From an uncultured Gemmatimonadota bacterium (GTDB lineage: Bacteria > JAAXHH01), in the NCBI GenBank assembly GCA_951812955.1, contig OX638340.1, positions 3,360,001 through 3,424,000 on the forward strand: 64,000 nucleotides of DNA. Reading direction: 5' to 3'. The translations under genes were made by a program, and so were the position numbers. The notes below the pieces were generated by a model. That model ran no database searches, was not told the origin of the DNA, and saw nothing but the letters and a program-made list of their open reading frames with translations. Of the stretch, positions 2,505 through 53,377 are shown piece after piece (the first letter of the stretch is position 1; every line of letters starts with the position of its first letter).

Positions 2505-4802
2505 TCAGGCTTCCGTCCTGCCCTTCAAAGGAGCCGTCCTCCCCTTCAGGCTTCCGGCCCCACGCGTACGAGCGCGTTTCGAGCCGTTGTTGACCCTGAC
2601 CGTTTCACAGGCCTGTTCGTATAATTCCCTCTGAGACTGTAAACGACTACCCGCCTTCTTCACGTACCGGTACGTTCCATCCGACTGCAATTCCCGCGCC
2701 TTCACGTTGTCCTTCAACTGGATTTTCAAATACGCCCACAGTTCCGCCTGGAGCGCACGGTCGACGACCGGGAAGGAAACTTCAACGCGCCGGTTGAGAT
2801 TCCGGTCCATCCAGTCCGCGCTGGAAAAGTAATACTCCGGGTCTCCGTCGTTGTAGAAATAGAAGAGGCGGACGTGTTCGAGAAACCGGTCGACGATGCT
2901 GATGACGCTGATGTTCTCGCTCAGACCCGGAACACCTGGTCTCAGGCAGCATATGCCCCGAATGATCAGCTGAATCTGCACGCCGGCCTGTGACGCCTGG
3001 TACAGCTCGACGATCATGTCCGGGTCGACGAGCGAATTGATCTTGGCGATTATGAGGGCCGGCTGGCCGTTTCGGGCCCGCTCGCTTTCCCTCCGCAGCC
3101 TTTTAACCATGTCCTCCCGCATCGACGTGGGAGAAAGGATGAGGTGGTGAAAGTGCTTGGGCAGCGCGTAACCCGTCAGCAGGTTGAACAACTGCGTTAC
3201 GTCCTCGCCGAATTCCTCCTTGTCCGTGAACAGGCCGAAATCGGCGTATATCCGTGCCGTCTTGTCGTTGTAATTCCCCGTGCCCAGGTGACAGTAGCGG
3301 TGAATTGCGTCGCCTTCGCGGCGCACCACCAGGCAGGCCTTGCAATGGACCTTTATGCCTGGTATGCCGTAGATGACGTGGGCCCCCGCTTCCTCGAGCT
3401 GCCTTGCCCACTGGATGTTCGCCGCCTCGTCGAACCGGGCCTTCAATTCCAGCAGCACCGATACTTCCTTGCCGTTTTCCGCCGCCCGGGTCAGCGCCCG
3501 TGTAATCGGCGAGTTTGCGCTCACTCGGTACAGCGTCATCTTGATGGCGAGCACGCTGGGGTCTTCCGCCGCTTCCGAAACGAAACGGACTACCGCGTTG
3601 AACTGATGGAAGGGGTGGTGCAGCAGGATGTCTTCCTTCTTGATGGCGTCCCATATGGAAGGGGCTCCCTCGAAGGACATCGCCGGCTGGGGCGGGAAGG
3701 GTTCGTCCATGAGATCCGGCCGGTCGATGGCATCGTAGAACTCGATGAGATCGGAAAAGGCGGTGAAACCCTCCGTGGGGTAAAGGTCCTCCTGCTCCAG
3801 TTCCAGTTCGTCCACCAGGATGTCCAGGACGCGGGTGGATAACTCCGGATCGTACTGCAGCCGGACGGCAGCCCCGTTTCGCCGGTTTCTTATGCCCTCC
3901 TCGATGACCGTCAGCAGGTCCTCCGCGCCTTCCTCCTCGTAGTCCACGTCGGCGTCCCGCGTCACGCGGATCGACGCGCAGTTCAGCACCTCGTAGCCGT
4001 TGTAGAACAGGTCGAGGTTCATGAGGATGACGTCCTCCAGCATGAAGAACGCCTGCCGGCCGTTCTCGGACGGTAGTTCGAGGAATCGCGGCATGACGGA
4101 TGTGGGCAGGTGGATGACTGAAAGGTTTGTGTGGGGAAAGACGGACCGCTGGATCTTCCGGATTTCAGCCACCAGGCAGAGCGTGCCGTTGGCCAGGTAG
4201 GGAAAGGGATGTCCCGGGTCTACCGCCAGCGGGGTCACCACGGGCAGTATGGTCTTCCGGAAGTACTCGTCCAGGTAGGCCTTCTGCGAAGGGCTGAGCT
4301 GTTCGGGCTTGAGTATGTCGATGCCCTGCTCGGTGAGCTGCGGGAAGATCTCGTTGATGAACAAGCCGTGCTGCTTGTTGACCAGTTCGTGCATCCTGGC
4401 CGAAAGGGCGGTCATCACCTCTCTGGGACTCAGGCCGTCCGCGGTCCGCGTGGATTGGATCTGCGCATCGATCTGTCTTTTGACGCCGGCGACGCGGATC
4501 ATGAAGAATTCGTCCAGATTGGTACTGAATATGGCCAGGAACTTCACTCGTTCCAGCAGGGGCACCGACGGATCGAGCGCTTCCTCGAGCACCCGCGCGT
4601 TGAACTCCATCCAGCTGAGTTCCCGGTTGAAGAAGTGCTCCGGGCGCCAGTAGTTCGTCACCAGCGGTGCCGTGGACGGCCGGGGCTTTCGGGTGAAGCG
4701 CCGGCCGGCTCGCTTAGAGGCGATGGTTCGAACCGTTGCGGTCCTGGCGTTGTTTCTTTTTGCAGTTGGCATTACCAGGTCACCAGAGATGATTGCGGAC
4801 AT
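2505..4802 (-). CDS. ppk: Polyphosphate kinase 1 (the true start may be an internal codon; N-terminus is ~40 aa longer than E. coli PPK)
   Basis: Canonical PPK1 N-domain NRELSWMEFNARVLEEA...VKFLAIFSTNLDEFFMIRVAG and PLD-like C-domains, along 765 aa. Confidence 0.9.
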   Translation of the reverse strand: MSAIISGDLVMPTAKRNNARTATVRTIASKRAGRRFTRKPRPSTAPLVTNYWRPEHFFNRELSWMEFNARVLEEALDPSVPLLERVKFLAIFSTNLDEFFMIRVAGVKRQIDAQIQSTRTADGLSPREVMTALSARMHELVNKQHGLFINEIFPQLTEQGIDILKPEQLSPSQKAYLDEYFRKTILPVVTPLAVDPGHPFPYLANGTLCLVAEIRKIQRSVFPHTNLSVIHLPTSVMPRFLELPSENGRQAFFMLEDVILMNLDLFYNGYEVLNCASIRVTRDADVDYEEEGAEDLLTVIEEGIRNRRNGAAVRLQYDPELSTRVLDILVDELELEQEDLYPTEGFTAFSDLIEFYDAIDRPDLMDEPFPPQPAMSFEGAPSIWDAIKKEDILLHHPFHQFNAVVRFVSEAAEDPSVLAIKMTLYRVSANSPITRALTRAAENGKEVSVLLELKARFDEAANIQWARQLEEAGAHVIYGIPGIKVHCKACLVVRREGDAIHRYCHLGTGNYNDKTARIYADFGLFTDKEEFGEDVTQLFNLLTGYALPKHFHHLILSPTSMREDMVKRLRRESERARNGQPALIIAKINSLVDPDMIVELYQASQAGVQIQLIIRGICCLRPGVPGLSENISVISIVDRFLEHVRLFYFYNDGDPEYYFSSADWMDRNLNRRVEVSFPVVDRALQAELWAYLKIQLKDNVKARELQSDGTYRYVKKAGSRLQSQRELYEQACETVRVNNGSKRARTRGAGSLKGRTAPLKGRTEA

Positions 4803-5613: not shown

Positions 5614-5671
5614 GGAACCTGGTGTCTACCACCCGATCTCCGGGAATCACGCCATCAATAAACTCTGTCCT

Positions 5672-5727
5672 TGTCATGGCCTTGTATGCTGTTCGTCACA
5701 GAATCGTCAAACAACCTCTTTATAATG
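5672..5727 (+). promoter_or_regulatory. Pho-box-like direct repeats (TTGTCAT / TTGTATG / TCGTCAC at 11-bp phasing) followed by a perfect TATAAT, about 90-145 bp upstream of the TonB receptor gene
   Basis: Heptads begin at 5672, 5683 and 5694 (11-bp period, TGTCA core as in the E. coli CTGTCAT Pho box). TATAAT at 5722-5727. Confidence 0.35.
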
Positions 5728-8759: not shown

Positions 8760-8831
8760 CGCAGAATGACGACTTGCGGGGACGCTCGACCTTTTCAATC
8801 TCAACTGCCAGCTCAATTAAGGAGGAGTAGT

Positions 8832-11800
8832 ATGTTTCGGCGGAATGCCATCGCTGCAATTTTGGTATCGTTGTTTTTACCAGTCCTCGCAGAAGCACAA
8901 TCCAACCCGGTCGTTTCAGTCACAGACTCGGACATCGTGGGTAACGTGACCTTCACGTCGAACAACACGTACCTGCTCTCGGGCCTGGTGTTCGTGGAGG
9001 ATGGCGAGACGCTTACGATCGAACCCGGCACGGTGATCAAGGCGCGTCCGGCGGACGCCGACGGTGTGGTCTCGGCATTGATTGTAGCGCGCGGCGGGAA
9101 GATCTTTGCTGACGGTACGGCGATGGATCCCATCATCTTCACGGCCGAGGCCGACAATGTGGACGATCCGGACGACATCCTGCTCACCTCGGAAGCGGCC
9201 TCGCGGGGGTTGTGGGGCGGCGTGATCATCCTGGGCAGGGCATCGATCAACGCGGCCACGGGCATGAACAACATAGAAGGCATAGACACGACTGAGCCGC
9301 GGGGCATCTACGGCGGCGGCTCGTTCCCCGACGATAACGACAACTCGGGCGTGTTTCGCTACGTGTCGATCCGCCACGGCGGCGCGCGGATCGGAGCGGA
9401 CAACGAGATCAATGGGCTGACGATGGGCGGCGTGGGGCGTGGCACGACGATAGAGCACGTGGAGGTGTTCTACAACCAGGACGACGGGTTCGAGTGGTTC
9501 GGGGGCACGGTGAATACGCGTTACCTGGTGGCGGCCTTTGCCGGCGACGACAGCTTCGACTACGACGAGGGCTTCCGCGGTGAGCACCAGTTCTGGTTCT
9601 CTATCCAGGATCCGGCCGTAGGCGACCACGCCGGCGAGCACGACGGCGGCACCAAGCCGGAGGATGGCAGGCCGTACGCCAGTCCCACGATCCTGAACGC
9701 CACGTACATTGGGCGGGGCGCTTCCTCGATGGGGGGCAAGGCGAATAACGCCCTGATCTTCCGCGACAACGCGGGGGGCATGTATTTCAACAGCATCTTC
9801 ACCGAGTTCCAGGGCCGGATGCTGTCGATCGAGGACCTCGAGGGCAATGCGGGCACGGACAGCCGCGCGCGTCTTGAGGCCGGCGACCTTGCGTTCCAAA
9901 ACAACATCCTGGGTGCCTTCGGCGCGGGCAACACGCCATCGCAACTCGCCGCCGAGTCCGAGGATCACACGGCCATGGTGCTTTCAGATCCCGGGAACAT
10001 GATCCGAATCGTAGATCCACAATTGCAGGGCATCAACTGGAACCGCAACCGGGGGCTGGACCCACGACCCGGTACCAACAGTCCTGCCTGGGATGCGAGC
10101 CAGCTCAAGGAAGAACCCCGGAACACCGGGTTCTTTACGGACGTCGATTACGCAGGGGCATTCGGTACGGAAAACTGGGCGGCGGACTGGTCGGCCCTCG
10201 CGGACCTGGGCTATTTCAGCACCGCACCTCCACCCGAGCCGCCGGAGCCCGGGGTTGTTACTGTCACAGACTCGGACATCGTGGGTAACGTGACCTTCAC
10301 GTCGAACAACACGTACCTGCTCTCGGGCCTGGTGTTCGTGGAGGATGGCGAGACGCTTACGATCGAACCCGGCACGGTGATCAAGGCGCGTCCGGCGGAC
10401 GCCGACGGCGTGGTCTCGGCATTGATTGTAGCGCGCGGCGGGAAGATCTTTGCCGACGGTACGGCGATGGATCCCATCATCTTCACGGCCGAGGCCGACA
10501 ATGTGGACGATCCGGACGACATCCTGCTCACCTCGGAAGCGGCCTCGCGGGGGTTGTGGGGCGGCGTGATCATCCTGGGCAGGGCATCGATCAACGCGGC
10601 CACGGGCATGAACAACATAGAAGGCATAGACACGACTGAGCCGCGGGGCATCTACGGCGGCGGCTCGTTCCCCGACGATAACGACAACTCGGGCGTGTTT
10701 CGCTACGTGTCGATCCGCCACGGCGGCGCGCGGATCGGAGCGGACAACGAGATCAATGGGCTGACGATGGGCGGCGTGGGGCGTGGCACGACGATAGAGC
10801 ACGTGGAGGTGTTCTACAACCAGGACGACGGGTTCGAGTGGTTCGGGGGCACGGTGAATACGCGTTACCTGGTGGCGGCCTTTGCCGGCGACGACAGCTT
10901 CGACTACGACGAGGGCTTCCGCGGTGAGCACCAGTTCTGGTTCTCTATCCAGGATCCGGCCGTAGGCGACCACGCCGGCGAGCACGACGGCGGCACCAAG
11001 CCGGAGGATGGCAGGCCGTACGCCAGTCCCACGATCCTGAACGCCACGTACATTGGGCGGGGCGCTTCCTCGATGGGGGGCAAGGCGAATAACGCCCTGA
11101 TCTTCCGCGACAACGCGGGGGGCATGTATTTCAACAGCATCTTCACCGAGTTCCAGGGCCGGATGCTGTCGATCGAGGACCTCGAGGGCAATGCGGGCAC
11201 GGACAGCCGCGCGCGTCTTGAGGCCGGCGACCTTGCGTTCCAAAACAACATCCTGGGTGCCTTCGGCGCGGGCAACACGCCATCGCAACTCGCCGCCGAG
11301 TCCGAGGATCACACGGCCATGGTGCTTTCAGATCCCGGGAACATGATCCGAATCGTAGATCCACAATTGCAGGGCATCAACTGGAACCGCAACCGGGGGC
11401 TGGACCCACGACCCGGTACCAACAGTCCTGCCTGGGATGCGAGCCAGCTCAAGGAAGAACCCCGGAACACCGGGTTCTTTACGGACGTCGATTACGCAGG
11501 GGCATTCGGTACGGAAAACTGGGCGGCGGACTGGTCGGCCCTCGCGGACCTGGGCTATTTCAGCACCGCACCTCCACCCGAGCCGCCGGAGCCCGGGGAA
11601 CCGGAAGAAGAAGCGCCGGACGCGTTCAGCCTGTCGCAGAACAGTCCGAACCCCTTCGGCATGACCACGAATATAGAGTACGCAGTATCTTCGACGAGCC
11701 ACATACTGATCGAGGTGTACAACATTCGGGGCCAGCGGGTAGCCATGGTCGTTAACGATATCAGGCTTCCGGGGCAGTACTCGGAGATATGGGACGCTCA

Positions 11801-11897
11801 GCACCTTTCAAGCGGCGTATATTTCTACCGCTTCGAGGCTACGGCGGATGGGCGGACCGCCCACGTTTTTAACAGGAAGATGACGCTTCTGAAGTGA
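8832..11897 (+). CDS. T9SS-secreted protein (1021 aa): signal peptide, two near-identical 448-aa modules of unknown function, and a Por-secretion C-terminal sorting domain
   Basis: Strong SD AAGGAGG before the ATG at 8832. Signal peptide MFRRNAIAAILVSLFLPVLAEA. C-terminus LSQNSPNPF...HILIEVYNIRGQRV...SGVYFYRFEA matches the TIGR04183-type T9SS CTD. The internal modules carry no recognisable catalytic motif. Confidence 0.75.
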   Translation: MFRRNAIAAILVSLFLPVLAEAQSNPVVSVTDSDIVGNVTFTSNNTYLLSGLVFVEDGETLTIEPGTVIKARPADADGVVSALIVARGGKIFADGTAMDPIIFTAEADNVDDPDDILLTSEAASRGLWGGVIILGRASINAATGMNNIEGIDTTEPRGIYGGGSFPDDNDNSGVFRYVSIRHGGARIGADNEINGLTMGGVGRGTTIEHVEVFYNQDDGFEWFGGTVNTRYLVAAFAGDDSFDYDEGFRGEHQFWFSIQDPAVGDHAGEHDGGTKPEDGRPYASPTILNATYIGRGASSMGGKANNALIFRDNAGGMYFNSIFTEFQGRMLSIEDLEGNAGTDSRARLEAGDLAFQNNILGAFGAGNTPSQLAAESEDHTAMVLSDPGNMIRIVDPQLQGINWNRNRGLDPRPGTNSPAWDASQLKEEPRNTGFFTDVDYAGAFGTENWAADWSALADLGYFSTAPPPEPPEPGVVTVTDSDIVGNVTFTSNNTYLLSGLVFVEDGETLTIEPGTVIKARPADADGVVSALIVARGGKIFADGTAMDPIIFTAEADNVDDPDDILLTSEAASRGLWGGVIILGRASINAATGMNNIEGIDTTEPRGIYGGGSFPDDNDNSGVFRYVSIRHGGARIGADNEINGLTMGGVGRGTTIEHVEVFYNQDDGFEWFGGTVNTRYLVAAFAGDDSFDYDEGFRGEHQFWFSIQDPAVGDHAGEHDGGTKPEDGRPYASPTILNATYIGRGASSMGGKANNALIFRDNAGGMYFNSIFTEFQGRMLSIEDLEGNAGTDSRARLEAGDLAFQNNILGAFGAGNTPSQLAAESEDHTAMVLSDPGNMIRIVDPQLQGINWNRNRGLDPRPGTNSPAWDASQLKEEPRNTGFFTDVDYAGAFGTENWAADWSALADLGYFSTAPPPEPPEPGEPEEEAPDAFSLSQNSPNPFGMTTNIEYAVSSTSHILIEVYNIRGQRVAMVVNDIRLPGQYSEIWDAQHLSSGVYFYRFEATADGRTAHVFNRKMTLLK
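8919..11606 (+). repeat. Direct tandem duplication, 2 x 1344 bp (copy A 8919-10262, copy B 10263-11606), >99.8% identical over 1336 bp
   Basis: Identical antisense ORFs appear at a 1344-nt offset in the ORF track (8916-9968 vs 9984-11312; 9560-9934 vs 10904-11278). Aligning the plus-strand text by eye finds two mismatches, both synonymous: GGT/GGC near 9075/10419 and GCT/GCC near 9109/10453; the alignment was not checked base by base. Confidence 0.9.
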
Positions 11898-12099
11898 TCC
11901 TGAAGCCGGCATAGTGGGCCGCAACCGGTATACTTCACCGATGCGGACCGTTCAGAGAGTCGATTGGGGCCTCGCGTATGTACTTATGCGGGGCCCTGTT
12001 GTTTTATACGGCGTTCCGCCGGGGTTGACGCGGTACGGGGCCACATCTATTTTTAACACGTTGCCCCCATTGTATCAATCCACTATCCAGGACTATCGG

Positions 12100-13230
12100 A
12101 TGACTGATCGCGCCCGGGGACGCCGGATTGACCGGCGCCGTCTGCTGGACTTACTGTTCGGTCGCCTGGCCGCACTGGGCGGTATTGCGCTGATACTGAC
12201 CATACTGGCGGTCTTTGCCGTGATACTGTGGGTCATTTACCCCTTGTTCCTGTCGCCCGCGGAATACCGCTGGGATACCCCCGGTCCCGATGGAATCGAG
12301 TCCGGATACGGCATCCTGCCCCTGATCTTCGGGACCCTGAAAGGCGCGGTGTACACCCTGCTTTTTGCGGTGCCCGTTTCGGTGCTCGCCGCGCTCTACG
12401 CGTCGCAGTTTCTGCCACGGTCGCTGAAGGAAAACCTGAAACCGCTGGTGGAAATCATGGCCGCGGTGCCGAGCGTCGTGCTCGGATTTATCGGCGGCAT
12501 ATGGCTCGCACCGTTCCTGGCGTCCCACGTTTTCGCACTCTTCCTCGCGCCGGTATTTATCGCAGGCACCGTTTTGACCGCTTTTCTGGTCAGACACCAT
12601 GCCCCGGTCCGGTTTCTGGTATTTAATCATCCGGGCAGGGAATTCTGGCTGCTCCTGGCCGCCGTGTTGGCCGGGGGATGGCTGGCCCTGGAATGCGGGG
12701 CGTTGCTTGAGGCCGCCTATCTGCATGCGGGCTACGAAACGTGGCTTGAAGAATCCCTGGGACTGACCTACGAGGAACGAAACGCGATTGTCGTGGGTAT
12801 GGTCATGGGGCTGGCGGTGACCCCGATCATATTCACCATATCCGAGGAAGCGCTTTCCGCTGTGCCCCGTTCGTTTTCTGAAGGATCCATGTCGCTGGGG
12901 GCCTCACGCTGGCAGACCGCCATACGCATCGTCCTTCCCGCCGCGGGCGCCGGGATCCTGTCCGCCGTCCTGCTGGGATTCAGCAGGGCGATCGGGGAGA
13001 CCATGATCGTGCTGTTTGTTTCGGGCAATGTCCCGGCCATGGACTGGTCCGCTTTCTCCGGGTTCAGGGCGCTGTCCGCCAACGTAGCGCTCGAATTGCC
13101 GAACGCTGCGCGGGACGACAGCCTCTACCGGGTCCTGTTTTTCGCCGCCTTTCTCCTCCTCGTTTCGACTTTTGCGATTAACATCGTGGCCGAACTGGTT
13201 CGACGACGACTGAGACGGCGGTATGCCTAA
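12100..13230 (+). CDS. pstC: Phosphate ABC transporter permease PstC (the ORF-track GTG at 11914 is an alternative start)
   Basis: Collinear with E. coli PstC: GILPLIFGTLKGAVYTLLFAVPVSVLAALYASQF...PLVEIMAAVPSVVLGFIGGIW, plus the EAA loop ...ASRWQTAIRIVLPAAGAGI. Confidence 0.85.
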   Translation: MTDRARGRRIDRRRLLDLLFGRLAALGGIALILTILAVFAVILWVIYPLFLSPAEYRWDTPGPDGIESGYGILPLIFGTLKGAVYTLLFAVPVSVLAALYASQFLPRSLKENLKPLVEIMAAVPSVVLGFIGGIWLAPFLASHVFALFLAPVFIAGTVLTAFLVRHHAPVRFLVFNHPGREFWLLLAAVLAGGWLALECGALLEAAYLHAGYETWLEESLGLTYEERNAIVVGMVMGLAVTPIIFTISEEALSAVPRSFSEGSMSLGASRWQTAIRIVLPAAGAGILSAVLLGFSRAIGETMIVLFVSGNVPAMDWSAFSGFRALSANVALELPNAARDDSLYRVLFFAAFLLLVSTFAINIVAELVRRRLRRRYA

Positions 13231-13265
13231 GCGCCGGGCGGTCCGCCCGCACGCAAGGAGATACG

Positions 13266-14693
13266 ATGGGTTCGAAGTGGTCAAAGGATGACGCCTTGAT
13301 CTGGTTGTCCGGGGGGGGTCTGGTCCTCGGCTGCCTGATGGTGGCGGGACTGTTCCTGGTGATCGTCGTACATGGACTGGACCGGTTCTGGCCCCAGGAC
13401 CTGACACGGTACACGCTGCACGACGGCGGGGTTGTCCTGGGCCACGAGGCGTCCCGTGAGGACGTACTTACAACCAACGCCAGGGGTGAGCGTTCTGTGG
13501 CATACCGTTTGAGGATCCGGACCGGTGACCGGGACCGGTATCCGGACGACTACGTCTGGCTGGAGGAAGGCCGCGTCACTTGGCGGGATGTCCCACGCGA
13601 GGCCGTGGTGGTGGAACAGGTTCGGGGCGGGGACTTATTCGGATTCCTGGATTCCTTCGTGGACGATGGCACGGTCGTCGCCCTGGGTTACGATGACGTC
13701 TGGGCACTTTACCAGGAGGGGTACCCGGAACTGGAACGGCTGCGCCGGCAGAGGTCGCTTTCTATCGTCCTGTCTTCGGCGGATGGCCGGCCGAGCACCA
13801 TTTCACTTGCTGACGTCCAGCGGATCTATACGCCAAATGCGATGACGGCGTGGACAAGGATCCGCCACTATATGGCCAGTGCGTGGTCCTACCTGTGGGC
13901 GCCCCCGCGGGACGAAAACCGCCAGGGCGGGGTCTTTCCTGCTGTCTTCGGCACGGCGGCGATGGTCATCCTCATGTCGGTCGTTGTCATGCCCTTCGGC
14001 GTGCTCGCGGCCTTCTACCTGAGAGAATACGGAAAACCGGGTCCGTTCCTGAACGCGGTACGTATCGCCGTAAACAGCCTGGCCGGAGTGCCGTCCATCG
14101 TCTTCGGGGTTTTCGGGCTCGGTTTCTTCGTGTATTTTGTGGGAGGCATCCTGGACCGTCAGTTCTTCCCGGAGGCACTTCCGGGACCGACATTCGGCCG
14201 GGGCGGCATCCTCTGGTGCTCACTGACCCTGGCCTTGCTCACATTGCCCGTGGTCATCGTGGCCGTGGAGGAAGGCCTGGCCGCCGTGCCATCGGGACTC
14301 CGCGAAGCGTCCCATGCCCTGGGTGCGACGCGGTTCGAGACGCTTTGGCGCGTCGTCGTACCCGTGGTGCTGCCATCCATTCTCACGGGTCTGATCCTGT
14401 CCGTGGCGCGGGCGGCCGGTACCGTGGCGCCGCTCATGATCGCCGGGGTCGTCGCCTTTTCTGCCGATTTGCCCGTGGACGGCGAATGGCCGTTCGTGCA
14501 CCTGGATCGCGAGTTCATGCACCTGGGATTTCATATCTTCGACACCGGTTTCAGGCCCGGCGAAGGAGATGCGGCGCTATCCATGGCCTACACTTCCACC
14601 CTGTTGCTGCTGGCCATCGTGGTCGCACTGAACGCGGCGGCGATCGGGCTCAGAAGCCGGTTGAGGAGACACTATTCGCTGGCCGCGCCATAG
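13266..14693 (+). CDS. pstA: Phosphate ABC transporter permease PstA (long form with a large periplasmic insert)
   Basis: C-terminal half matches PstA ([14 protein letters not shown]...[40 protein letters not shown]). Six TM segments. Follows pstC. Confidence 0.85.
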
Positions 14694-14766
14694 GCGTACC
14701 CGGTCCGCGTACGATCCCGATCCGCGGCATACGAGATCCCGGTCCGCTTACAAGAGGTATAATCGC

Positions 14767-15564
14767 ATGACGATGGAAAATGCGCCGTTCACGCCGAAGA
14801 TCATGCGCGAAGAAACAATCATCGATGTCGAGAACGTGTCCTTCTGGTACGGGGACAGGGCCGCGCTGAGGAACGTTTCCATGGCGATCGATCGCCATGT
14901 CATCACGGCCTTCATCGGACCGTCAGGCTGCGGCAAGACGACATTGCTGCGGCTGTTCAACCGCATGAACGACCTGGTTCCCCAGACCCGCATGACGGGA
15001 TCGATCCGGATGAACGGAGCAGACATCTACGGCCCGGATACCGACGTCACGCGTCTGCGCCGGCGCGTGGGCATGGTCTTCCAGCAACCGAATCCCTTTC
15101 CCAAGTCGATCTATGAGAACGTAGCCTATGGCCCCCGAATCCATGGGGTGAAGTCCGGGGAATTTCTCGACGAGATCGTGGAACGGTGCCTGCGAAGGAC
15201 GGTGCTGTGGGACGAGGTTCAGGATCGGCTCGAAGAAAGCGCGCTCAAACTCTCCGCCGGACAACAGCAACGGCTTTGTATCGCGCGGGCGGTCGCCGTC
15301 GAACCGGAAGTCCTGCTCATGGACGAGCCGTGCTCGTCACTGGACCCGGTCGCCACGTCCAGGATCGAGGAATTAATGCTTGATCTGAAGGATGATTACA
15401 CCATTGTTATCGTGACACACAATATGCAGCAGGCAGCGCGTGTGTCGGAATACACCGGGTTCATGCTCAAGGGCGAACTGGTGGAAATGGGTGTGACCGA
15501 CGTGATGTTCACCACGCCGGGGGACCGGCGCACGGAGGATTACATTACGGGTCGTGCGGGATAG
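14767..15564 (+). CDS. pstB: Phosphate ABC transporter ATP-binding protein PstB
   Basis: Walker [10 protein letters not shown], signature [15 protein letters not shown], Walker [12 protein letters not shown], and a PstB-type C-terminus. Confidence 0.92.
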
Positions 15565-15595
15565 CGACCCGTGATACTGACCGAATAAGGCGACC

Positions 15596-16300
15596 ATGGA
15601 GACCCACCTTCAGCAACAACTGGAAGACCTGAAATCCGCCCTGCTGAGGATGGCGGCGCTGGTCGAGGAACAGATCGCGCGGTCGATTACCGCTATGATG
15701 GAGCGGGACGTGGAATTGTGCGACCAGGTCATCCGCGGAGATCAGCCCATTGACGCCATGGAACTGGAGATCGACGATCAGTGTATCAGGTTGCTTGCTC
15801 TCCAGCATCCCATCGCGCGGGACCTTCGCTTCGTTGCGGCCAGCATGAAGATTACGATCGACCTGGAACGGTTGGGCGACATCGCAGTCAACATCGCCAA
15901 GAAAACGAAACGGCTCGTGGGGATGCCCCTCCTGAAACCGATCGTCGACATTCCGCGCATGGCCGAAATGTCCCAGTCCATGGTGAAGGACAGCCTCAAC
16001 GCCTTCGTCCGCGGAGACGAGCAACTGGCCGTGGACGTCTGCGTAAGGGACGAAGCGGTAAATCAACTGCAGGACCAGGTCTTCCAGGATCTGGTGACTG
16101 CCATGGTGGAAGATTCGGCGACGGTGCCCCAGGCGCTCCAGTTGATCTTCATATCCCGCCACGTCGAACGGCTCGCAGATCACGCCACGAACATCGCCGA
16201 AGGGGTGGTGTATTTCTCAGAAGGCCGCGTGATCAAGCATCATGGGAATGACGATCCGAATCAGCCACCCAATCGTCCAGTATCCGGTGGGCCTGCGTGA
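15596..16300 (+). CDS. phoU: Phosphate signalling complex protein PhoU
   Basis: Two PhoU repeats (...RDLRFVAASMKITIDLERLGDIAVNIAKK... and ...ISRHVERLADHATNIAEGVVY). Directly downstream of pstB. Confidence 0.88.
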   Translation: METHLQQQLEDLKSALLRMAALVEEQIARSITAMMERDVELCDQVIRGDQPIDAMELEIDDQCIRLLALQHPIARDLRFVAASMKITIDLERLGDIAVNIAKKTKRLVGMPLLKPIVDIPRMAEMSQSMVKDSLNAFVRGDEQLAVDVCVRDEAVNQLQDQVFQDLVTAMVEDSATVPQALQLIFISRHVERLADHATNIAEGVVYFSEGRVIKHHGNDDPNQPPNRPVSGGPA

Positions 16301-51887: not shown

Positions 51888-52961
51888 CTACGCCTTCCGG
51901 GATTCGGCAAGGCGCAGTTGTCCGCATGCCGCGTCGATGTCCCTGCCGCGTTCCCGCCGCATGGTCAAGTGCAGTCCGCCCGCCCGCAACGCATCCGCAA
52001 AGACCGTCCGGCGGTATTCGTCGGGGGTTTCGTAGGGCAGGCCGCGCACCGGGTTATAGGGAATCAGATTCAGCTTGCATTTGTCCTTTTTCAGCAGCCG
52101 AACAAGGTGTTCCGCGTCCTGGAACCGGTCGTTCACGCCCTTGAGCAGGACATATTCATAGGTGATGATCCGGTCGGTCACCCCGGTGTAGTGGCGACAG
52201 GCCTTCATGAGCTGCTTGAGGGGATAACGCCGGTTGATGGGGACGATCTCGGAACGGGTTCGGTCGTCGGCGGCATGGAGGGACACGGACAACTCGAACT
52301 GGATCTTCTCGTCGGCCAGCTGGTAGATCTTGGGAACGAGGCCGCTGGTGGACAGCGTGATTCTGCGGGCGCCGATGCCGAGTCCCCAGTCGGCGTTGAT
52401 GATCCGTACGGCCCTGAGCACCTGGCTGTAGTTGGCGAGCGGCTCCCCCATGCCCATTACGACGATGTTGTTTATTGGACGGTCATCACCGGCCAGCTTC
52501 CTGACCTGGACGACCTGGTCGACGATTTCGGCCGACGTCATGTTGCGCGCCAGGCCCTCCAGCCCGCTCGCGCAGAAACGGCAGCCGATGGCGCACCCCA
52601 CCTGCGTGGAGATGCAGAGCGTGTTGCGCCGCGAACCGCCGATCAACACCGTCTCCACCTTCTGGCCGTCCCCGAGTTCGAACAGGTACTTCATGGTCGG
52701 ACCGTGGCGCGACTTCGACTGTTGGACGATGGTCAACGGGTTCAGGCAGGCGCGGTCCGAAAGTTCGGCCCGGAATGACCGGGACAGGTTGGTCATTTCC
52801 TCGAATGAGCCCACGGCCTTCTTGTATACCCATGAGGCGATCTGGCCGGCCCGATAGGCCGGTTCGTTCATCTCCGCGACGATCCGCGAGATCTCCGGCA
52901 GCGTCAGGCTCCTCAGATCCGGTTTGCCGCGCGCCGCCGTTCGTGATGTCGGTGCCTGCAT
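51888..52961 (-). CDS. rlmN: 23S rRNA (adenine2503-C2)-methyltransferase RlmN (radical SAM). The reading frame stays open through three 66-bp repeats up to 53126, so the N-terminus may be extended
   Basis: ...PAYRAGQIASWVYKK...EMTNL..., CxxxCxxC TQVGCAIGCRFCASG, ...GMGEPL..., ...DIDAACGQL. The ATG at 52961 gives an N-terminus of canonical length. Confidence 0.8.
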   Translation of the reverse strand: MQAPTSRTAARGKPDLRSLTLPEISRIVAEMNEPAYRAGQIASWVYKKAVGSFEEMTNLSRSFRAELSDRACLNPLTIVQQSKSRHGPTMKYLFELGDGQKVETVLIGGSRRNTLCISTQVGCAIGCRFCASGLEGLARNMTSAEIVDQVVQVRKLAGDDRPINNIVVMGMGEPLANYSQVLRAVRIINADWGLGIGARRITLSTSGLVPKIYQLADEKIQFELSVSLHAADDRTRSEIVPINRRYPLKQLMKACRHYTGVTDRIITYEYVLLKGVNDRFQDAEHLVRLLKKDKCKLNLIPYNPVRGLPYETPDEYRRTVFADALRAGGLHLTMRRERGRDIDAACGQLRLAESRKA

Positions 52962-53111
52962 GGTCAACTCCGATTTCCTCAGATCCGGTCTGCCGCGCGC
53001 CGCCGTTCGTGATGCCGGTGCCTGCATGATCAACTCCGATTTCCTCAGGTCCGGTTTGCCGCGCGTCGCCGTCCGTGATGCCGGTGACCGCATGGTCAAC
53101 TCCGATCTCCA
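52914..53111. repeat. Imperfect tandem repeat, 3 x 66 bp, at the 5' end of rlmN. Each unit (minus-strand sense) carries GGAG-N6-ATG and a TTGACC hexamer
   Basis: Units start at 52914, 52980 and 53046. The minus strand reads AGGAAATCGGAGTTGACCATGCAGGCACCG.... Encoded peptide repeat DLRKSELxMQAPxSRTAARGxP. Confidence 0.8.
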
Positions 53112-53377
53112 CAAAACCGGTTGCAAGATACGGCGGATCGAACCCGTTGTCTATGGAAAAGCGGTGAAGGCGCGCCGGTCGCGATCGCACCTTCAGCCCG
53201 TATACTATAGGCATGACGGCCCGGCAACGCCAAGGTTGACATTTTGCTTGTTTTCGACCTCCCGCCCGCGTATATTTTCGTCGGAAGGCAAACTGGCATG
53301 AACACAGGCTTAAGGGGTCTGCGACGTAGCGCGTCGACGCGAGGAACGCAAGGACTCCGTAGCGGAGGATTGAAAAA

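Follow-up and report, generated by a model that had tools for sequence, protein, structure and literature searches.

Concerted evolution of bacterial genes by gene conversion and unequal crossing-over is known classically from the rRNA operons and the tuf genes. Within single genes, the Periscope Proteins (SasG, Rib, Sgo_0707, Esp and CdrA) are bacterial surface proteins of variable length that carry long, highly identical tandem repeats (Whelan et al. 2021, PMC8201768). The subject of the present analysis is a 1344-bp tandem repeat inside a gene for a putatively exported beta-helix protein, found in a 64,000-nucleotide stretch of the genome of an uncultured Gemmatimonadota bacterium (GCA_951812955.1, contig OX638340.1, positions 3,360,001 to 3,424,000), which is referred to throughout as the window. 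The evidence, taken together, favours with a probability of roughly 0.8 an old, shared duplication whose copies are kept alike by recombinational homogenisation, at a locus that changes in copy number and encodes a putative phosphate-capture protein.

The window gene resembles those for Periscope Proteins in that near-identical DNA repeats lie in a gene for a surface or secreted protein and correspond to whole folded domains. In both, repeat number varies between close strains, with intragenic homologous recombination as the proposed cause. The two kinds also differ. Periscope units measure ~80-130 amino acids (aa), whereas the window unit has 448 aa and its copy number is low (1-6). The window unit is the sole extracellular domain type, rather than a stalk for an N-terminal "head", and no separate head domain was found in the window protein by reading of the sequence or in domain scans. 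A predicted type IX secretion system (T9SS) C-terminal domain, in a Gram-negative bacterium of the Fibrobacterota-Chlorobiota-Bacteroidota (FCB) group, takes the place of the LPXTG anchor. Finally, the setting appears to be one of phosphate acquisition beside a TonB-dependent receptor, not of adhesion. As with the rRNA operons and tuf genes, paralogues in the window are more alike than orthologues, synonymous sites included, while the edges stay divergent. Unlike those genes, the window copies are intragenic, in frame and adjacent, so that the same process also changes protein length.

A third group of described systems concerns partners of outer-membrane transporters. In Flavobacterium johnsoniae, phosphate depletion strongly induces receptors together with the adjacent "hypothetical lipoproteins" FI, FII (Fjoh_0546) and FIII, which show weak similarity to pectate lyase or polygalacturonase and are among the most abundant exoproteins (PMC8115612). 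ElpS of C. crescentus (CC0170) is likewise induced by phosphate starvation, and its gene adjoins that of receptor CC0171; it raises extracellular phosphatase activity without itself being a phosphatase (PMC2996285). Price and Arkin proposed that BT4056, Fjoh_0546 and ElpS are outer-surface "lids" of TonB-dependent transporters, and found the pairing of lid and transporter in 621 genera (bioRxiv 10.1101/2023.03.17.533168).

The repeat and the protein that contains it

When the window is compared with itself at an offset of 1344 bp, positions 8919-10254 align with 10263-11598 in a 1336-bp run that has two mismatches (99.85% identity), a match that cannot have arisen by chance. The mismatches, 9065/10409 (GGT/GGC) and 9110/10454 (GCT/GCC), both fall at third codon positions and are synonymous. 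A preliminary description of this DNA had reported two in-frame copies of 448 codons each, in agreement with the offset comparison and with the inclusion of both copies in one open reading frame (ORF). It had also carried the second copy to 11606, an end that has to be given up, since the 8 bp that follow copy 2 (11599-11606) do not match 10255-10262 (TTGTTACT). The latter segment is homologous to the 8 bp preceding copy 1 (8911-8918, TCGTTTCA), with 5/8 positions identical, and the sensible register therefore runs from 8910 to 10253 and from 10254 to 11597.

Read in frame, each 448-codon copy begins VV(S/T) and finishes ...APPPEPPEPG. Over the full 1344-bp unit the copies show five differences, four of them synonymous and one a non-synonymous Ser/Thr exchange. 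Three of the five sit in the first 9 bp, where the head of copy 1 reads GTCGTTTCA and that of copy 2 GTTGTTACT. The earlier statement that the copies differ at only two positions, both synonymous, is thus accurate for the 1336-bp core and wrong for the unit as a whole. Tandem Repeats Finder did not return the 1344-bp repeat because the longest period that it searched, 500, is shorter than the unit.

The listed ORF that holds the repeat extends from 8766 to 11897. Its real start is the ATG at 8832, which is preceded by AGGAGG at 8820-8825 and is equivalent to the Met at which the gene calls of relatives begin. An identical protein (P0123) is recorded in NCBI and ENA on a 3,813,436-bp contig. 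A Sec-type signal peptide of the AxA type can be read from the sequence at ~8832-8897, MFRRNAIAAILVSLFLPVLAEA|QS (…LPVLAEA|QS), and no lipobox Cys was found in the window protein, which has this signal peptide and the T9SS C-terminal domain instead. The mature protein would consist of two 448-aa units, an acidic linker and the C-terminal sorting domain. The last of these was matched by PF18962 at 28.1 bits (cut-off 27) and by TIGR04183 at 28.9 bits (cut-off 23), both of them marginal and above threshold.

The repeat unit had no match in local Pfam and NCBIfam scans; weak matches to DHFR_2, DfrB and DUF6059 fell below threshold and were discarded. Placement of the unit in PF28492 (Beta_helix_4) comes from the precomputed annotation of homologues, in which all listed homologues carry this family, among them P0048 (which represents the 90% identity cluster of P0123) and the syntenic genes in the related loci L001-L005. 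The unit has the right-handed parallel beta-helix fold. The best explanation of the product is a Sec- and T9SS-exported protein, either held at the cell surface or released, with two right-handed beta-helix domains; the signal peptide and the T9SS C-terminal domain support the secretion that had been proposed at the outset.

Copy number, junctions and homogenisation

Two-copy alleles of the same species occur in the window and in three other assemblies: L003 (a SPAdes contig of 249 kb), L004 (a 345-kb scaffold) and L005 ("ptg000768l", a hifiasm-style name, 2.47 Mb). They stem from different samples and assemblers. Conspecific alleles with one copy are found in L001, L002 and L006 (OY762445.1, "chromosome: 1", 3.91 Mb), and the order of receptor gene, beta-helix gene and pstCAB is conserved across L001-L006. 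The record titles of these relatives name Gemmatimonadetes or Candidatus Latescibacterota metagenome-assembled genomes (MAGs). All four conspecific two-copy alleles share the same breakpoint, ...CCCGGG|GTT(G/A)T(T/C)AC(T/A)|(G/A)TCAC, which is translated as PG|V(V/I)T|(V/I)TD. The breakpoint of a sister species, L014 (OZ220749.1, ~81% aa identity), is of the same type (EPG|VVT|ITD), with copies that are 90% identical. An exact junction query (GCCCGGGGTTNTNACNNTCACNGACT) against JGI metagenome contigs gave no match, so that the junction is confirmed only in ENA assemblies.

Variation in copy number, to which the locus had been predicted to be prone, is evident both within the cluster of the window protein and beyond it. 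The 90% protein cluster of the window contains one-copy members of 573 aa, with nine or more distinct sequences of which three lie on ~3.9-Mb contigs, and two-copy members of 1015, 1021, 1021 and 1023 aa. In the sister cluster, that of P0001, lengths of 574, 1025/1027, 1478 and 2829 aa correspond to 1, 2, 3 and 6 copies. More widely, homologue lengths cluster at ~575, 980, 1430 and 1800 aa, as expected of 1, 2, 3 and 4 units. Chromosome-scale records are represented in several of these classes, with one copy in L006, two in L014 and L016, and three in L019 and L022. This sister cluster, a second one beside the species of L014, has another junction (…GYVGETELVDDGRRL|ITDADI; …DVDEGIQL|ITD in P0150), and this different junction, found with 1, 2, 3 and 6 copies, implies that expansion occurred more than once in the clade. 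P0150 itself (ENA, 950-kb contig) has 2829 aa and six Beta_helix_4 units, of which copies 3-5 are 96-99% identical.

The duplication is real. A repeat expanded during assembly had been one of three explanations offered in the preliminary description, and a related possibility is that two strain variants of a single-copy gene were stitched together; both core sites that differ are strain polymorphisms, as reads from mixed strains would give. Such an artefact is nevertheless very improbable. The novel junction GGG|GTTGTTACT|GTC has to exist in the reads, as an assembler would not invent it. Three other independent assemblies have it as well, and in each of them both copies bear substitutions peculiar to that strain; one of these assemblies is the 2.47-Mb contig with a hifiasm-style name. 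The exact window protein is carried by a 3.81-Mb contig, and a multi-copy architecture is the norm in the Beta_helix_4 family. Independent assemblies, long contigs included, thus carry two copies and the same junction, contrary to assembly expansion.

Flanking DNA bears on the direction of change in copy number. By this measure L001 and L006, with one copy each, are placed among the alleles with two: in the upstream flank L004 is closer to L001/L006 than to the window, and in the downstream flank the distance of L001/L006 from the window and L004 is much smaller than that of L003 and L005. This position among two-copy alleles points to secondary loss, and the one-copy alleles are best read as products of scarless removal of a copy.

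The relation of copies within genomes to those between strains carries the case for homogenisation. Copy 1 and copy 2 of the same genome differ at 2 (window), 4, 3 and 10 of ~1335 sites, whereas strains differ from one another at 21-67 of ~1335 sites per unit. Whichever two of the two-copy strains are compared, 20-66 interior sites sort with the strain and none with the position of the copy. Strain-specific indels, namely a 9-bp deletion in L005 and a 3-bp insertion in L003, are present in both copies. In the 9-bp head the pattern is reversed: copy 1 reads GTCGTTTCA and copy 2 GTTGTTACT both in the window and in L004, so that 3 sites here sort by position, yet 20 interior sites of these same two alleles split by strain. 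Within one genome the head of copy 2 departs from that of copy 1 at 2-3/9 bp, compared with 0.15% for the interior, and within-genome differences lie near the unit edges in 3/4 strains. Such a pattern is characteristic of concerted evolution through gene conversion, unequal crossing-over or both.

Identity of the copies might also reflect a very recent duplication, either in each two-copy strain or in the window lineage, with too little time since then for divergence. The 99.85% identity of the core and its exclusively synonymous differences are what such an event would leave, and the existence of one-copy alleles that are 98% identical in DNA makes a one-copy ancestor conceivable. Against this, the breakpoints are identical in four strains that lie 21-67 sites apart per unit and in the sister species, and independent events would have to reuse a breakpoint that offers only 1-2 bp of microhomology. 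Nor does recent origin agree with a head that diverges at 2-3/9 bp beside an interior that diverges at 0.15% in the same genome, or with the window and L004, alike by position in their heads and separated by strain at 20 interior sites. Recent duplication is for these reasons improbable. Among the options first listed, the common junction of four conspecific strains and a sister species, with interior sites that group by strain, speaks for ongoing homogenisation, and this junction and the divergent head of copy 2 contradict very recent duplication.

A further alternative, strong purifying selection on two domains that evolve independently and without recombination, has the least to recommend it and is hardly credible. 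The ratio of non-synonymous to synonymous divergence (pN/pS) between strains, 0.11-0.23, is in its favour and indicates purifying selection on the domain. Homogenisation extends to synonymous sites, however. Over the whole unit, the window copies show 4 synonymous differences on ~325 synonymous sites (~0.012), as against 14-42 between strains (synonymous divergence 0.03-0.13). Since synonymous sites are far more alike within a genome than between strains, protein-level selection cannot account for the identity. Indels and non-synonymous changes peculiar to a strain are found in both copies, and argue in the same direction. The preliminary description had taken two synonymous-only differences as a hint of purifying selection on both copies; two sites lack the statistical weight for this, and synonymous identity points rather to recombinational homogenisation.

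Similar behaviour can be traced in the family at large. Among copies in multi-copy homologues, 230/274 are nearest to another copy of the same protein, and of the remaining 44, nearest to a copy in another protein, 36/44 match the copy at the same position; such positional orthology is seen in some lineages for which close orthologues have been sampled. Homogenisation would thus be common but not universal, and with sampling as it stands, concerted evolution across the family is only suggestive.

The favoured sequence of events begins with a single old duplication, in tandem and in frame, of an entire module of domain and linker, the 448-codon Beta_helix_4 unit; it would have been created by illegitimate joining at ...CCCGGG|GT.... 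The duplication would predate the divergence of the sampled strains and probably also the split from the sister species. RecA-type homologous recombination between the 1.3-kb copies, in the form of intrachromosomal gene conversion, unequal sister-chromatid exchange or both, would then keep the interiors near-identical. At the edge of the unit conversion tracts lose homology, and the first 9 bp would there keep an older, position-specific divergence. The same recombination would alter copy number, with scarless deletion leaving one copy and unequal exchange giving more, so that the population would hold one- and two-copy alleles and the sister species 1, 2, 3 and 6 copies.

Several points weigh against this account or limit its reach. 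For the count of two copies in the window, and not more, the basis is its own assembly and the analogy of the others. Since short-read assemblies can collapse or mis-count repeats, neither the one-copy alleles L001 and L002 nor the two-copy alleles L003 and L004 carry much weight individually, and the copy-number argument relies on the long contigs L005, L006, L014, L016, L019 and L022. The two core sites at which the window copies differ, 9065 and 9110, are also polymorphic among other alleles, for which the chance is ~0.008 with two random sites. C is present at 9065 in L001 and L006 and at 9110 in L002 and L025, and all four combinations of the two sites are represented. This makes simple new mutations an improbable source of the differences. 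There are hints instead of patches imported from other alleles or of recurrent T-to-C change at third positions in a genome of 60% GC, neither of which is predicted by the simple model. Repeated, independent duplications at a domain boundary that selection favours keep their standing as a formal alternative. Gene conversion and unequal crossing-over leave the same sequence signature and cannot be told apart by it, and Pho regulation, surface anchoring and the ligand are all putative.

Neighbourhood and candidate phosphate control

The features of the locus are collected in Table 1. Upstream of the receptor gene, the block TTGTCAT ggcc TTGTATG ctgt TCGTCAC agaa TCGTCAA (5671-5710) is followed by TATAAT at 5721-5726, and its TyGTnAn half-sites are phased by 11 bp. 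The arrangement looks like a double Pho box in place of a -35 element. The cognate regulator is presumably PhoB, on the assumption that the architecture of the E. coli Pho box applies here. The block is kept in 15 loci of related species (73-99% relatives), in which the surrounding intergenic DNA is not kept.

Table 1. Coordinates of the repeat, its gene and the neighbouring features, in window positions
Feature	Position	Strand	Description or basis
Polyphosphate kinase 1 gene (ppk1), divergent neighbour	2505..4802	-	Pfam PP_kinase domains
Pho-box-like promoter upstream of TonB-dependent receptor	5671..5726	+	Four half-sites and TATAAT, read from sequence
TonB-dependent receptor, 980 aa	5817..8759	+	CarboxypepD_reg + Plug + TonB_dep_Rec/OMP_b-brl_3; Pfam, NCBIfam matches
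Gene for putatively secreted two-domain beta-helix protein	8832..11897	+	1021 aa, equal to P0123
Copy 1 of 1344-bp unit (448 codons)	8910..10253	+	One Beta_helix_4 domain and Pro-rich linker PPPEPPEPG
Duplication junction ...CCCGGG|GTTGTTACT|GTC (PG|VVT|V)	10251..10265	+	Common to L003, L004, L005; at amino-acid level also sister species L014
Copy 2 of 1344-bp unit	10254..11597	+	Departs from copy 1 at 10256, 10260, 10262 (head), 10409, 10454
Acidic linker (EPEEEAPDAF) and T9SS type A C-terminal sorting domain	11598..11894	+	Pfam match ~11646-11843
Terminator-like hairpin, 14-bp stem, then TTGTTTTATA	11965..11998	+	Directly 3' of beta-helix gene
pstC 12100 (probable start)-13230; pstA 13266-14693; pstB 14767-15564; phoU 15596-16300	12100..16300	+	NCBIfam, Pfam

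Past the strong terminator-like hairpin there is a promoter-like site at 12025-12053. These two elements make it probable that pstCAB-phoU is transcribed on its own, apart from the receptor and beta-helix genes. The start of pstC was set partly from the gene calls of relatives (376 aa). No pstS was seen adjoining pstC, and PstC (376-438 aa) and PstA (475 aa) are long.

The pairing of receptor and beta-helix gene extends well beyond the window. Of 83 fetched loci, 76 have a receptor homologue next to the Beta_helix_4 gene and in the same orientation; the loci were drawn from MAGs labelled Gemmatimonadota or Latescibacterota, from Rhodothermales, Bacteroidota and Verrucomicrobiota, and from a Hyphomicrobiales MAG.

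Elsewhere in the window, a 66-bp tandem repeat of three copies (95% and 88% identical to the first) occupies 52910-53121. It sits just upstream of, or in a 5' extension of, an RlmN-like radical S-adenosylmethionine ORF on the minus strand (51888-53126). No Rfam families and no tRNAs were found in the 64-kb window.

Function and significance

By analogy with the described transporter partners, the protein most likely acts at the cell surface, or after release, as a module that captures, and may hydrolyse, a phosphate-bearing substrate of the adjacent receptor. Under phosphate limitation it would capture, or possibly cleave, such an extracellular substrate and pass it to the receptor, and a molecule with more copies would have more binding modules and a longer reach. 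Like ElpS, Fjoh_0546 and BT4056, the window protein has a pectin-lyase-like beta-helix fold without enzymatic assignment, and its gene lies directly beside that of a TonB-dependent transporter in a pairing kept across phyla. It also shares with them a phosphate-regulon neighbourhood and a predicted extracellular location. The Pfam architecture of the window receptor is that of Fjoh_0545, which is next to FII: CarbopepD_reg + Plug + OMP_b-brl_3 (Table 1 of PMC8115612). The window protein differs from these lipoproteins in having a T9SS sorting domain and no lipid anchor, and in its two tandem domains, with up to six elsewhere.

Membership of ElpS, BT4056 and Fjoh_0546 in the same family is a well-supported lead, drawn from fold, context and architecture. 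A single-domain homologue in Pontibacter silvestris (L059 5899-7287) is a 462-aa lipoprotein in which the Cys is followed by SDDDD, like the surface-export signal of Bacteroidota; its gene precedes the adjoining receptor gene and does not follow it. Comparison of this lipoprotein with the T9SS cargo of the window suggests that the lipid anchor and the T9SS C-terminal domain replace one another within the family. A homologue search seeded with the Pontibacter lipoprotein placed no named F. johnsoniae, B. thetaiotaomicron or Caulobacter protein among the closest 120 listed.

Variable, near-identical repeats in surface-protein genes are already known from the Periscope Proteins, concerted evolution is classical, and the window locus fits both. 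Unusual here are the very large unit, which amounts to a whole putative functional domain, the absence of a head, the status of the protein as predicted T9SS cargo and the nutrient-acquisition setting. The locus offers a clean natural example of concerted evolution together with copy-number polymorphism of a 448-codon intragenic repeat in uncultured bacteria. As far as could be found, the literature does not discuss the multi-domain forms as regards repeat homogenisation or valency. On the practical side, short-read assemblies are likely to mis-count domains in Beta_helix_4 genes, and gene length in MAG catalogues calls for caution.

It is a tentative proposal, and rather doubtful at present, that the copy number of the beta-helix module is a rapidly adjustable, selected trait, whereby the valency or reach of a phosphate-scavenging protein that supplies a TonB-dependent transporter is tuned through recombination between homogenised repeats of 1.3 kb. 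If true, the system would be a Gram-negative, T9SS-exported, nutrient-acquisition counterpart of the Periscope Proteins, and the persistence of two-copy alleles across strain and species divergence, despite the intrinsic instability of the repeat, would be explained. The scope of the family is considerable, with more than 7,600 proteins among the candidates tested that are homologous at E <= 1e-10. Together, these proteins would constitute widespread, uncharacterised beta-helix partners of TonB-dependent transporters, linked to phosphate acquisition.

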